Below, in pieces: positions 45,253 to 47,240 of a stretch of DNA of 64,000 nt. The position numbers and the translations under genes were made by a program. Position 1 is the stretch's first letter. Each line of letters starts with the position of its first letter. The notes beneath the pieces were generated by a model. The model ran no database searches. It worked only from the letters and a program-made list of their open reading frames with translations, and was not told the DNA's origin. Source of the stretch: a virus; IMG/VR virus record IMGVR_UViG_3300036985_004624; one strand, 5' to 3'.

Positions 45253-45368
45253 TGGTGCCGCATGCCTGGATTTGCACCAAGTCTTCTTCCTTATGAATGG
45301 AATTTAATTGCTGTAAGAATCCTTGGCAGGATTACCTTTAAGCGTGCTATCTATTACACTACAGCGAC
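45253..45368 (-). ncRNA. tRNA-like RNA with permuted CAGCAA module plus CAT loop in anticodon arm
   Basis: D arm, AATCCTG-CCA-AGGATTC-TTA-CAGCAA, TTCC-ATTCATAA-GGAA, T arm, ACCA. Confidence 0.7.
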
Positions 45369-45373
45369 ATTGT

Positions 45374-45435
45374 TGGTGTCCCGCTTATACCCTGCAATAT
45401 GTATCAACAGATACAGGAATCATAGGAGCCGAACA
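45374..45435 (-). ncRNA. CCA-ended minihelix RNA
   Basis: Terminal stem plus ACCA, internal TGTATC/GATACA hairpin. Confidence 0.5.
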
Positions 45436-45440
45436 TAAAT

Positions 45441-45500
45441 TGGTCCCCATTCATATTCCACCACATACGGCCAATCTAACCAGTTAGAGATAATGGGAAC
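45441..45500 (-). ncRNA. CCA-ended minihelix RNA
   Basis: TCCCATT/AATGGGG-ACCA. Confidence 0.5.
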
Positions 45501-45510
45501 AGGGGTAAAG

Positions 45511-45586
45511 TGGTGGGCTTGTCCGTAATCGAAACGGAATCTCTCTGCTTAAGAGGCAGGACTCTAGCCACTTGAGTTACAAACCC
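45511..45586 (-). tRNA. tRNA-Lys(CTT)
   Basis: CCTGC-CTCTTAA-GCAGA. Confidence 0.88.
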
Positions 45587-45592
45587 GAAAAA

Positions 45593-45682
45593 TGGTGGGC
45601 ATACGATGGATTCGAACCACGCCAAACAAACTGCATCGCAGATGCATCTACTGTATGTTTGAATATACTACCTTAGGTGCCC
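45593..45682 (-). ncRNA. tRNA-like RNA with elongated anticodon arm
   Basis: GGGCA/TGCCC-ACCA, TTCGAAT T loop, CAAACA..TGCATC-TGC-GATGCA..TGTTTG. Confidence 0.6.
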
Positions 45683-45686
45683 ATAA

Positions 45687-45761
45687 TGGTATTCCGCTGG
45701 GGTTTTGATCCCCACTCAATAGTTTGAAGGACTATCGGCCACACCAGCTGCCTCGCGGAAT
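45687..45761 (-). tRNA. atypical tRNA-Glu(TTC), C33
   Basis: ATAGT-CCTTCAA-ACTAT. Confidence 0.7.
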
Positions 45762-45767
45762 GTGTAT

Positions 45768-45841
45768 TGGTTCCCAGAGCAAGAATCGAACTTGCAAGAT
45801 TCGGTTATCAGCCGAGCATTATACCACTTAATTATCCGGGA
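45768..45841 (-). tRNA. tRNA-Ile(GAT)
   Basis: CTCGG-CTGATAA-CCGAA. Confidence 0.88.
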
Positions 45842-46505
45842 ATTTTAATTTTCTGCCTTTTGTCCAACCGTTATCAATATACGATTGTAAAAGGTCTTTA
45901 TCTATCTTTATACTTTTCTTTAGTATAATATTTGTTATCCAACAGGTGCCATATTGTGAATTATTTTCTGCTATGCCCAGACCTTTATGACTAATACTCA
46001 TCTTTATCTTTGTTTCGGTTGAATGTATTTTACCAGCAAATGGTGTAAGTTTAAGGGCATGTACTTTAGCAATTGCTATTCGGCCACGGGCGGCAACTTT
46101 ATTGGCAAATTCTGGATCAGTTTTATAATGTAATTTTCGCGATGCAGCAGTCTTAGCTTGGATTTCTGGATTTTTCAGATTACCATATCCACCCCATACT
46201 GAACTAGTATTTATATGATCCCAACCGCCGAAACCACCTATTTTTAAGTTGTATGTATTTTCGTTTGTCAGGAAATCTTCATTTACTAATTCCGCTTCTT
46301 TATCATACATTTCTTTAGGATTATCATATTCAAATAATATTTCTTTAGTGAAATTTTCTAATCCATGCTTCTTGTAAGCATGATTTAGATATTTTCCTGA
46401 ACCCATATACCCGTCGTCTTTATTCTTAGTTTTGTGAAAACCGATATAGATTTTGTTATTAAGATTATTTGTAATTTTATATATTAGATAAAACATAAGT
46501 GCCAT
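45828..46505 (-). CDS. GIY-YIG homing endonuclease (Seg-like)
   Basis: IYKITNNLNNKIYIG..GYMGSG..YNLKIGG, NUMOD3 HSTETKIKMS. Confidence 0.92.
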   Translation of the reverse strand: MALMFYLIYKITNNLNNKIYIGFHKTKNKDDGYMGSGKYLNHAYKKHGLENFTKEILFEYDNPKEMYDKEAELVNEDFLTNENTYNLKIGGFGGWDHINTSSVWGGYGNLKNPEIQAKTAASRKLHYKTDPEFANKVAARGRIAIAKVHALKLTPFAGKIHSTETKIKMSISHKGLGIAENNSQYGTCWITNIILKKSIKIDKDLLQSYIDNGWTKGRKLKFPDN

Positions 46506-46562
46506 TACGCTGTTGTTCTTATGTATTTATCATAGTTCGACGCTCTTGCGCGAACTGCTGTG

Positions 46563-46635
46563 TCTCCCTATCCGGATTCGAACCGAAACCCTACCGCCCC
46601 AAACGGCAAATGCAACCAGATAACACTTTAGAGAG
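46563..46635 (-). tRNA. tRNA-Pro(TGG), CCA not encoded
   Basis: TGCCG-TTTGGGG-CGGTA. Confidence 0.8.
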
Positions 46636-46645
46636 ATTAAAAAAT

Positions 46646-46698
46646 TGTTTAGCTAGGTAGAATGGATTCAAAGTCCACTAGTTATACTTAACTAAACA
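46646..46698 (-). ncRNA. long-stem RNA carrying Gln anticodon stem-loop
   Basis: TGTTTAGTTA/TAGCTAAACA stem enclosing TGGA-CTTTGAA-TCCA. Confidence 0.7.
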
Positions 46699-46703
46699 TA
46701 TAT

Positions 46704-46782
46704 TGGCTCCGTGTGAGGGAATCGAACCCACCTAGTCATTGATTAACAGTCAAGTCCTTGCACCTTGCTTGAATTTCACGGA
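46704..46782 (-). tRNA. tRNA-Asn(GTT)
   Basis: CTTGA-CTGTTAA-TCAAT. Confidence 0.85.
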
Positions 46783-46790
46783 ATAAATTT

Positions 46791-46865
46791 TGGTGCCCCA
46801 GGCAGGAATCGAACCCACACACCCTGATTACAAAACAGGACCTCTACCACTAAGGATACAAGGGC
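46791..46865 (-). tRNA. tRNA-Thr(TGT)
   Basis: CCTGT-TTTGTAA-TCAGG. Confidence 0.88.
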
Positions 46866-46875
46866 AATATTAAAA

Positions 46876-46931
46876 CAGACTACACATTTGGTTTCATTTA
46901 CAGTGAATTTTTAAATTGCTGTAGGTAGTCT
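46876..46931 (-). ncRNA. CAGCAA-scaffold RNA carrying Tyr anticodon stem-loop
   Basis: AGACTAC-CTA-CAGCAA..TTCA-CTGTAAA-TGAA..GTAGTCTG. Confidence 0.78.
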
Positions 46932-46938
46932 TTGAAAA

Positions 46939-47014
46939 TGGCGCCATAGACGGGAATCGGACCCGCCACGAACTGATAGACAGTCAGTTATCACCCCCAG
47001 GTGGACTCTATGGC
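46939..47014 (-). tRNA. tRNA-Asp(GTC)
   Basis: ACTGA-CTGTCTA-TCAGT. Confidence 0.85.
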
Positions 47015-47025
47015 ATAAATTAAAA

Positions 47026-47081
47026 CAGAATCCTTATTTTTACATTAAAAGTGTAATTTTTTTATTTGCTGAACGGATTCT
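47026..47081 (-). ncRNA. CAGCAA-scaffold RNA carrying Lys(TTT) anticodon stem-loop
   Basis: AGAATCC-GTT-CAGCAA..TTACA-CTTTTAA-TGTAA..GGATTCTG. Confidence 0.8.
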
Positions 47082-47088
47082 TTAAAAT

Positions 47089-47142
47089 TGGCGGGACATT
47101 TATAATGCAGTATAAATTCTTTACAGAATTATCTTTTGTCCC
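47089..47142 (-). ncRNA. CCA-ended minihelix with permuted scaffold variant
   Basis: GGGACA/TGTCCC-GCCA enclosing AATTCTG-TAA-AGAATTT-ATA-CTGCAT. Confidence 0.6.
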
Positions 47143-47148
47143 ATAACT

Positions 47149-47240
47149 TGGTGGAGAAGATTGGAATCGAACCAATTAGTTAGATTTTTGCGGTATACAT
47201 TCTTAACAGAATGATTGCTCTACCTTAGAGCATCTTCCCC
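47149..47240 (-). ncRNA. tRNA-like RNA, Ala-type acceptor, anticodon arm replaced by permuted scaffold
   Basis: GGGGAAG/CTTCTCC-ACCA, D and T arms, CATTCTG-TTA-AGAATGT-ATA-CCGCAA. Confidence 0.72.

Follow-up and report, generated by a model that had tools for sequence, protein, structure and literature searches.

The Class I RNAs of dictyostelid amoebae are small RNAs of ~60 nucleotides (nt; about 42-65 nt, 32-41% GC). The hallmarks given for them are a 6-base-pair (bp) end-to-end stem in which compensatory changes maintain pairing, the motif CCUUACAGCAA adjoining its 5' strand, a variable middle and the conserved ends AAG and CUGU, in which the G pairs with C (PMC7919456). As far as the account of Kjellin and colleagues goes, they have been reported in no organism outside Dictyostelia, and the prokaryote search in that account mentions only Myxococcus and names no viruses (Kjellin et al., 2021; PMC7919456). 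All characterised Y RNAs are likewise described as holding their protein site in an end-to-end stem, of which bacteria conserve only the 5' strand, and most YrlA RNAs are described as resembling permuted transfer RNAs (tRNAs) with a closed acceptor stem (10.1101/312249). Here, we describe RNA genes in a 64,000-nt stretch of viral DNA (IMG/VR record IMGVR_UViG_3300036985_004624; the whole stretch is referred to below as the window) that share one structured module, called the handle. Judged by their sequences, three of these genes, named P1, P2 and P3, belong to a conserved family of phage small RNAs within a tRNA array, in which one handle is joined to tRNA-derived cargo.

It is very probable that this handle-and-cargo architecture marks a real, functional RNA family. 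Two topologies of the handle coexist in one genome, an open form that encloses its cargo and a capped form set in an RNA with a free acceptor end and CCA, so that a single genome encodes the handle design in both circular permutations. In the collections sampled, the handle was restricted to phage tRNA arrays. Full-text literature searches found no account of the handle module in phages, of a phage tRNA whose anticodon stem holds a structured insert or of Class I-like RNAs in organisms other than amoebae. The capped features of the window are as follows:

45253-45368, minus strand: P3, a full cloverleaf with acceptor stem, D arm, split anticodon stem (CUU, break, CC:GGAAG), T arm and ACCA, carrying the handle as an insert
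45301-45339, minus strand: insert of P3, 39 nt between tRNA positions 29 and 30, consisting of AAAGGT, the capped handle, CTTA, CAGCAA and TTAAATT
45308-45333, minus strand: capped handle of P3, AATCCT-GCCA-AGGATT, with spacer CTTA and motif CAGCAA
45291-45298, minus strand: anticodon-type loop of P3, 8 nt, ATTCATAA, read as U-CAU-A-A with one extra 5' base
47149-47240, minus strand: P1, tRNA-like, with acceptor stem, D arm, T arm and encoded ACCA, and with a capped handle and CCGCAA in place of the anticodon arm
47188-47213, minus strand: capped handle of P1, CATTCT-GTTA-AGAATG, with spacer TATA and motif CCGCAA
47089-47142, minus strand: P2, a 6-bp acceptor-type minihelix (GGGACA/TGTCCC) with GCCA, enclosing a capped handle
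47105-47130, minus strand: capped handle of P2, AATTCT-GTAA-AGAATT, with spacer TATA and motif CTGCAT

The handle is a 6-7-bp helix whose outer end reads 5'-(A)AGR / YCU-G-3'. Its 5' strand is followed on the inner side by 3-4 nt, among them a conserved U, and then by a single-stranded CNGCAW, mostly CAGCAA, and an A-rich tract stands ahead of the 3' strand. In the capped layout, the strand ending in CTG comes first and is followed by a four-base loop (G-N-N-(A)) and then by AGR…-NNNN-CNGCAW. A preliminary description, made from the letters of the window, had taken the module to be a structural unit with a constant 10-nt spacing that also occurs with its strand order reversed. These points stand: joining the outer ends of the open unit and opening it on the inner side gives the capped form, and this circular permutation is real because the handle also occurs six times with its helix open at the RNA ends. 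With the A of AGR and the C of the motif as its limits, this spacing is kept in 33 of 33 open copies and, in a gapless alignment, in 15 of 15 capped copies, and the helix covaries in both topologies with the spacing and the flanking G and A kept. The G that follows CT is invariant, and the A that precedes AG is found in at least 90% of the capped copies, another base being present in L161 and in one read-derived variant (L-numbered records are IMG/VR contigs or loci). A pairing of CAGCAA with the terminal CUG was considered and is contradicted by the second motif base, which varies while CUG is fixed; an extension of the capped helix by AGG/CUU, suggested by the fold of the window copy, is not kept in relatives.

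The module is far more frequent in the window than composition predicts. The pattern YCTGNNNAGRN7CNGCAW has three matches in the 64 kilobases (kb), both strands counted, against 0.03 expected, and none of 100 shuffles reached three; the half-pattern AAGRN7CNGCAW has 11 matches against 1.81 expected, nine of them on the minus strand between 36.7 and 47.2 kb. The capped helix, in 15 copies (14 distinct rows), has 98.8% of its cells paired and four of six pairs changed on both sides, a level reached by none of 500 shuffles and compared with 34-56% in slid controls, in sets that were partly gathered with a filter demanding pairing. In the open helix, 29 copies of a 7-bp stem, likewise from a set gathered partly by such a filter, show changes on both sides in five of seven pairs. 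A less biased test was a strict, sequence-only pattern for the open helix, scanned over IMG/VR and over prokaryote genomes. In IMG/VR, the four free stem pairs were all present in 13 of the 25 matches (about 2% each by chance), with three of the 13 coming from the contig of L001 and two being identical copies on different contigs; 12 of the 13 lie within 1.5 kb of at least three tRNA genes. The same pattern gave full stems in two of the at least 120 matches listed from prokaryote genomes, neither of them near a tRNA gene.

The capped handle of P3 sits inside an anticodon stem. Unguided RNAalifold on nine P3-type RNAs predicted acceptor, D, handle, anticodon and T helices, with compensatory changes in 19 of 26 pairs, and recovered the handle hairpin on its own within this family; in the same alignment, the P3 acceptor stem has 7 bp and one bulged U. 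Three bases past position 26 pair with three bases 3' of the short anticodon helix, and all three of these pairs covary (CUU…AAG, ACU…AGU, GGU…ACC). A split-stem model leaves 25 of 27 cells paired, compared with 14 of 27 for a contiguous stem. For the whole structure, 94.7% of cells are paired across the nine sequences and 21 of 27 pairs are double-changed, with no shuffle of 500 as high. Because of the split-stem pairing and its covariation, the P3 module is read as inserted, between positions 29 and 30, into a tRNA that is otherwise complete. The insert comprises an A-rich leader, the module and a 7-9-nt trailer. The preliminary description had given P3 a module plus an extra hairpin loop, which is correct, and had the module replace the anticodon arm, which is not: the arm is kept and is interrupted in its 5' strand. 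We found no earlier example of a cloverleaf tRNA whose anticodon stem contains a conserved, structured module.

Homologues of the vWA protein whose gene adjoins P3 are encoded at 15 IMG/VR loci. P3 homologues lie directly upstream of this gene in L001, L006, L009 and L012 and directly downstream of it in L007, and the remaining 10 of the 15 loci have other sequence at the P3 site. The handle stems in this family include AATCCT/AGGATT, CACTCT/AGAGTG, TTTTCT/AGAAAA and GATCCT/AGGATC, with one mismatch in L009. A pattern scan added, among the matches listed, P3-type RNAs in L022, L073, L086 and L105; a three-pair stem filter was passed by 16 of at least 123 matches in that scan, of which six (five distinct RNAs) are in a tRNA-like context, and the others are in coding-like sequence in about the number predicted by chance. 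The contig of L049 has six capped-handle matches at 151-389, mostly 36 bases apart with one gap of 72, which form a tandem 36-nt repeat carrying TCTG..AAGA…CAGCAA; none of the six passed the stem filter.

The anticodon loops of the relatives are 7-nt loops of the form A-U-NNN-A-A with GUC, UAC (twice), CAC and UUC, and the P3-type RNAs of L086 and L022 have CUGUAAA and CUCUCAC, respectively. The discriminator base is G73 with GUC and A73 with UAC or CAC. In the copies of the window and of L001, the loop around CAU is 8 nt long, the acceptor stem is bulged and the T loop is the nonstandard TGCAAAT, and the P3 of the window is the most deviant member of its family. P3-type RNAs share one common body whatever their anticodon, and the ordinary tRNA-Val found in the same phage is not closely paralogous to them; L007 and L009 each have an ordinary tRNA-Val(UAC) besides the P3-type RNA. 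The L007 copy (L007:7090-7204) passes the Rfam tRNA model at 37.4 bits with its insert looped out, and the L009 copy scores 22.4 bits. At its loosest intron setting, ARAGORN called 45253-45471 a tRNA-Cys interrupted by a 121-nt intron, a call judged to be spurious; its intron mode gave no credible call at the three loci of P1-P3.

P1 and P2 carry the same capped handle on smaller parts of a tRNA. As the preliminary description had it, the sequence of P1 has intact acceptor, D and T arms and CCA with a hairpin at the site of the anticodon arm, and P2 is a minihelix with a variant module on the minus strand; a cloverleaf test against the tRNA model RF00005 likewise left P1 without an anticodon arm and P2 with an acceptor helix only. 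The 5' part of P1 reads GGGGAAG-AT-GCTC-TAAGGTA-GAGC-AAT-(CATTCT GTTA AGAATG)-TATA-CCGCAA and continues with AAATCTAACTA-ATTGG-TTCGATT-CCAAT-CTTCTCC-A-CCA, 11 more bases separating the motif from the T arm. Its acceptor stem has 7 bp with G3:U70, and its fold z-score is -4.3. Homologues of P1 were found at L007:8057-8146, at L161:401-495 and in a DNA contig of run X9 whose match is precisely 47148-47240; their motif is CAGCAA or CTGCAA. The X9 phage, a lake-water phage at ~38x depth, has a P1 gene with the canonical CAGCAA, a different loop and unlike flanks on both sides, which shows P1 to move independently of its neighbours. P2 has a homologue at L001:4024-4078 and another in record G002 (L349, ~2640-2705), the latter with compensatory changes in both the minihelix and the handle.

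None of P1-P3 is called by ARAGORN, with or without the intron option, or by the Rfam tRNA model. The P1 homologue L007:8057-8146 is called tRNA-Leu(aag) by ARAGORN, which reads the handle hairpin as an anticodon arm; the 'anticodon' of this call is the conserved AAG of the handle, and the label is likely an annotation artefact in public records. Annotation tools miss or misname handle RNA genes. Aminoacylation of P1-P3, which the preliminary description had also raised, is plausible in view of the encoded CCA, the covarying acceptor stems and the match of discriminator and anticodon in relatives.

Six of the nine minus-strand half-patterns in the array belong to open units of 52-123 nt, which gives the window six open and three capped copies. 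The open form, AAG-stem-NNN-CAGCAA…stem-CUGUUUUA, follows the layout ttAA-AGRNNNN-NNN-CAGCAA-(variable)-NNNNYCT-GTTTTA, in which the two 7-nt strands are paired. CAGCAA is present in 29 of 33 open copies, with the conserved U two bases upstream. Scores in the following lines are for Dicty_Class_I_RNA (RF01414), the Rfam model of the amoebal Class I RNAs:

47021-47085, minus strand: open handle RNA with inner loop CTTTTAA (Lys-UUU type); 38.1 bits
46871-46935, minus strand: open handle RNA with inner loop CTGTAAA (Tyr-GUA type); 30.5 bits; orthologues with compensatory stems in L009, L149 and L151
42218-42309, minus strand: open handle RNA with three hairpins, one of them T-arm-like (ATTGG TTCAACT CCAAT); orthologue at L146:1576-1667
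42143-42214, minus strand: open handle RNA with an inner hairpin of 7-bp stem and 9-nt loop; 27.3 bits; orthologues in L001, L146 and L161
38868-38990, minus strand: open handle RNA, AGGATG-gttg-CAGCAA … CATCCT-G around a hairpin and a D-arm/T-arm 'elbow' domain; a similar RNA in L001 at ~12290
36713-36772, minus strand: open handle RNA with inner loop CTCCAAA (Trp-CCA type); 31.6 bits

The cargo of the open copies is also tRNA-like. An anticodon-loop look-alike, taken as a stem of 4 bp or more topped by a 7-nt loop (mostly C-U-NNN-A-A) whose second base is U and whose sixth is a purine, occurs inside 18 of 33 open copies, against a mean of 2.5 and a maximum of eight in 300 shuffles; the 33 rows include orthologues and are not independent. 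The triplets represent at least nine anticodon types, among them Lys, Tyr, Pro, Trp, Phe, Leu, Asn and Ser. Further open cargo comprises the T arm (42309-42218), the D/T elbow (38990-38868) and a whole tRNA with a loop-closed acceptor stem. The last combination of open handle and closed acceptor, found at L006:10854-10977 and L009:10526-10651, is an exact circular permutation of P3; these two RNAs have the acceptor-closing loop TTGGTCA in common, and the anticodon loop of the L009 copy is CTTCAAA (UCA, which would read a UGA stop). Open copies usually begin 5-7 nt after the CCA of a tRNA, and only a few bases separate their closing CUGUUUUA from the tRNA that follows.

The window comes from a large, uncultured T4-type phage. 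Almost every open reading frame (ORF), all 31 tRNA genes called by ARAGORN and a two-piece transfer-messenger RNA (tmRNA, at 15892-16333) are on the minus strand, and the loose tRNA array extends over ~34.7-47.8 kb, with small ORFs and genes for homing endonucleases of the HNH and GIY-YIG types between the tRNA genes. Its translation and RNA-repair toolkit includes an RNA ligase at 180-1208 (PF09414 with an OB-fold domain), a PTH2-type peptidyl-tRNA hydrolase at 9283-9609 and a tRNA at 9172-9246 that ARAGORN labels Pyl and that, by its anticodon CTA, is an amber reader. By one neighbouring protein, the nearest cultured phage is Caulobacter phage Cr30 (57% identity). A blastn search of 44900-47800 against 50,697 phage records gave only homing-endonuclease matches among the 25 best rows and no record covering 80% of the query, and thus found no close cultured relative. 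A 353-kb relative, 99% complete, has 44 tRNA genes and 10 handle RNAs within 19.5 kb; of its handle RNAs, eight are open and two are capped, one of the P2 and one of the P1 type.

The array holds other odd units. At 46636-46790, on the minus strand between tRNA-Thr and tRNA-Pro, there are two more unusual RNAs, one CCA-ending and tRNA-like with a GUU (Asn-type) anticodon loop and a D-arm region reading …CAAGCAAGG…, and one a hairpin of ~10 bp, topped by a CTTTGAA (Gln-type) anticodon-arm look-alike, with neither handle nor CCA. Two short minihelix-like units ending …GGGGACCA and …GGGACACCA lie on the minus strand at 45369-45510, and a 90-nt tRNA-like RNA (GGGCA…TGCCCACCA) with a normal T arm and an irregular middle lies on the same strand at 45587-45686. 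No tRNA finder made a call at default settings for the odd units in these last two regions.

The prevailing view of phage tRNA arrays is that they counter tRNA-cutting enzymes of the host. A viral tRNA that neutralises a tRNA-cleaving defence has been reported (PMC11464382). On this background, the reading that we favour, tentatively and at a little under an even chance, is that the phage RNAs combine a Y-RNA-like docking handle with mimics of tRNA parts directed against tRNA-targeting enzymes. The handle would be kept in the mature RNA and not spliced out, since the linkers of P3 vary in length (6-9 nt ahead of the hairpin and 7-9 nt past the motif) and since open copies with nothing but an anticodon-arm look-alike would yield nothing useful if cut. 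A trans-acting factor, from either the host or the phage, would dock on the invariant handle, and the variable cargo, by mimicking a tRNA or one tRNA domain, would engage tRNA-binding proteins. The most likely use would be to bind, divert or saturate host tRNA-targeting enzymes such as anti-phage anticodon nucleases; a related use would be to mark the tRNA-like RNAs of the phage for a protective or repair factor. If so, the handle family would add a second layer to the array, consisting of designed tRNA fragments and tagged tRNAs in place of spare tRNAs, and the concrete handle sequence given here can be used to find the partner by pull-down.

Several results weigh against this reading. A decoy role is inferred purely and must be considered doubtful. 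The scaffold-binding protein to which the preliminary description had tethered the RNAs did not come to light: neither RRM_1 nor TROVE was found in the 80 ORFs of the window or in five related phage records, with a TROVE search control that was positive in two of 14 known genomes, Deinococcus among them. Two small ORFs of the array (36063-36419 and 35821-36060) are found in none of the five related records and show no co-occurrence with the handle RNAs, and the RNA ligase is present in two of the five and in one of the two near-complete ones. The filter demanding pairing, by which the sets behind the helix counts were partly chosen, inflates the percentages paired, which are not independent evidence. 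The deviant features of P3 in the window (8-nt loop, TGCAAAT) could mean that this copy is decaying, and loop base 4 is not A in two of four P1 copies (L161 and the X9 variant). The sole evidence from RNA libraries is one 299-nt contig of a relative, spanning 47084-47173 unspliced, which covers P2 and part of P1 and not P3 and may stem from DNA carry-over; the two RNA-library runs contributed only small shares as contigs, which do not bear on transcription, RNA ends or splicing, and uncovered parts of the stretch do not count as evidence.

Other candidates for a partner were considered. The vWA protein beside P3 (44155-45183, minus strand, 342 amino acids) is modelled with a MIDAS-type vWA domain and a beta-rich C-terminal domain, with a predicted local distance difference test score (pLDDT) of 88. 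The best fold matches of the model are complement and integrin vWA domains, with Ku80 at a low template modelling score (TM-score); no sequence match was found in the PDB, and its family, PHROG 26613, is annotated as of unknown function. The Cr30 homologue is encoded between the genes for a helicase loader and a single-strand DNA binding protein, with no adjoining RNA gene. The vWA protein was rejected as an RNA partner on account of its generic fold and the place of the Cr30 homologue among replication genes, a position that hints at a DNA-end or replication role. A BLAST search for a miniature RNase P RNA matched one of five related records clearly and another weakly, which is uninformative.

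The handle could also be a maturation signal, P3-type genes containing a new small intron at 29/30 and open whole-tRNA genes being permuted, so that cutting and ligation would yield ordinary tRNAs. Removal of the insert would restore a perfect, covarying 5-bp anticodon stem (CUU-CC:GGAAG, ACU-CC:GGAGU, GGU-CC:GGACC), the discriminator base of the relatives fits their anticodon, and the RNA ligase at 180-1208 could be counted in favour. The contacts that a tRNA makes with the ribosome give reason to doubt decoding with a branched anticodon stem, and a 39-nt branch there seems hard to square with it. Permuted and intron-split tRNA genes, moreover, have precedents in algae and archaea (PMC3218864; PMC4090602). 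However, the 3-4-3 bulge-helix-bulge is not formed, on inspection, in the nine aligned P3 RNAs, whose flanking linkers vary by 2-3 nt, and such absence of the expected geometry together with variable linkers argues against splicing. Most members have no complete tRNA to restore (P1, P2 and the copies with only an anticodon arm or a T arm), L007 and L009 already possess the ordinary tRNA-Val(UAC), only one of the two near-complete related genomes has the ligase, ARAGORN in intron mode finds no credible intron-bearing tRNA at P1-P3, and the RNA-library contig is unspliced, though over P1 and P2 and not P3. We regard maturation as an unlikely function of the handle.

The tight placement of the open copies between tRNAs, 5-7 nt after a CCA, and the conserved bases at the outer end of the helix would also suit handles that act as punctuation or stability elements of a polycistronic tRNA transcript, the clamp helix directing cuts by RNase P, RNase Z, RNase E or RNase III or blocking exonucleases and the cargo being incidental debris. 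Yet the capped forms keep the outer-end bases where there are no ends, the best conserved part is the single-stranded CAGCAA at the inner end (29 of 33 copies), inner sequences are kept between phages while stems drift (as in the Tyr-type copies of the window, L009, L149 and L151), and a handle is present at only some tRNA junctions, so that this role appears quite unlikely. Highly improbable is the view that P1-P3 are functionless, decaying tRNA pseudogenes bearing a repeated hairpin as the footprint of a mobile mini-element. The bulged acceptor stem, nonstandard T loop and 8-nt anticodon loop of the window P3, the rejection of P1-P3 by tRNA finders and the presence in the array of homing endonuclease genes and other odd tRNA-like stretches are in keeping with it, but all three RNAs have homologues in diverged phages (55-80% identity in the neighbouring vWA protein), and the acceptor, D, T, anticodon and handle helices of these homologues carry compensatory changes. 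Handle stems vary from copy to copy and always remain paired, unlike copies of one mobile sequence, and an abundant phage from another sample has P1 between different flanks.

Among known RNAs, the T4 stable RNAs species 1 and 2 (rnaC and rnaD) resemble the phage handle RNAs in being small, with tRNA-like 3' parts, and in lying in a T4-type tRNA cluster; their function is unknown, and they adjoin a GIY-YIG homing endonuclease gene. They were rejected as handle RNAs, as neither holds a handle or CAGCAA in such an arrangement, and the best RF01414 match of T4 (24.3 bits) is elsewhere in the genome. P1 shares with the tRNA-like domain of tmRNA the G3:U70 acceptor stem, the T arm, the CCA end and the lack of an anticodon, and its ends score 25.1 bits with the Rfam tmRNA model (gathering score 47), which matches the tRNA-like end only. 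It differs in that G3:U70 is lost in L007 and in that the phage has a separate two-piece tmRNA. A tag reading frame starting after the GCA of the motif was sought and is not conserved over four P1 copies, a stop following the GCA in the window and L007 and none following it in L161 or the X9 variant.

With the disrupted tRNA genes of algae and archaea, P3 has in common an insert that breaks the anticodon stem while the exon halves still pair, and the handle family as a whole presents one tRNA design in both circular permutations. P3 differs from archaeal introns in having no bulge-helix-bulge and in that its insert is a conserved module common to non-tRNA RNAs. We know of no splicing endonuclease of the archaeal intron type in a bacterial or viral setting.

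The YrlA RNAs and the handle RNAs are both modular, with a terminal stem conserved on its 5' strand and a tRNA-mimic module. A YrlA-like combination of terminal stem and tRNA-like domain with D arm, T arm and closed acceptor is seen at L005:12749-12867, L006:10854-10977 and L009:10526-10651 and at 38868-38990 of the window, whereas P1-P3 have a free acceptor end. The L005 RNA matches the full Rfam YrlA model (RF02553) with 39 bits (E 3e-7; gathering score 69), though it has no second stem of that model and its handle sequence is unlike the YrlA consensus. Ro/Rsr (TROVE), the YrlA partner that is usually encoded nearby, was found in none of the five related phage records. Many handle RNAs carry just an anticodon arm, and the capped forms with free CCA have no Y-RNA counterpart.

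A further likeness is to the Class I RNAs. Dicty_Class_I_RNA is the only non-tRNA Rfam family that matches the open units at relaxed thresholds, with four matches in the tRNA array of the window (38.1, 31.6, 30.5 and 27.3 bits; gathering score 41.5). The five related records have 5, 8, 5, 9 and 3 matches, the best at 36 bits and all below 41.5, and 25 of the 30 listed matches fall, record by record, into a single cluster on one strand that spans 2-30 kb. Controls scored 24.3 bits (T4), 20.3 bits (Cr30) and 17.3 bits (an unrelated IMG/VR record); the T4 match (132052-132103, minus strand, E 0.0024 for that genome) is taken as background. Like the Class I RNAs, the phage units are AU-rich and ~42-65 nt long, with a short, covarying end-to-end stem, an unpaired motif ending in CAGCAA beside the 5' strand and then a variable middle, and they share with the Rfam Class I consensus the A-rich tract before the 3' strand. 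Their ends, known as genomic sequence only, read ttAAAG…CUGUUUUA in the window and most relatives and gttttAGG…CCUGUUA in G002.

The phage spacer, by contrast, has 3-4 variable nt where Class I has CCUUA, and of the 11-nt motif CCUUACAGCAA the CCUUA part is not conserved in open copies, whereas the CAGCAA part is found in 29 of 33. The exact Dictyostelium 11-mer pattern gave 67 matches in IMG/VR, one of them with a full stem and none a structured copy, and most look like one near-identical, protein-coding family. The DUSE promoter, which stands ~60 nt upstream in Class I genes, was not seen for the phage copies, which have a tRNA gene 5-7 nt upstream; Rnp1A, the Class I partner, has two RRM domains, and no RRM_1 was found in the 80 window ORFs or the five related records; and capped, permuted or tRNA-fused forms are not described for Dictyostelium. 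By predicted structure, the phage units appear to have each Class I structural hallmark save the CCUUA part and the promoter, a likeness that may reflect homology, convergence or chance. It is possible, if in our view uncertain and on balance improbable, that the phage handle is the same module as the Class I scaffold, which would then be a far older or horizontally shared docking scaffold with tRNA mimicry (anticodon arms, minihelices and whole tRNAs) as its natural cargo, by which phages would offer tRNA decoys in both permutations to tRNA-targeting enzymes. In that case, Class I RNAs would not be an amoebal invention tied to multicellularity, and a real likeness would bring their uniqueness to Dictyostelia into question and make the mechanism of the amoebal RNAs testable from a new angle.

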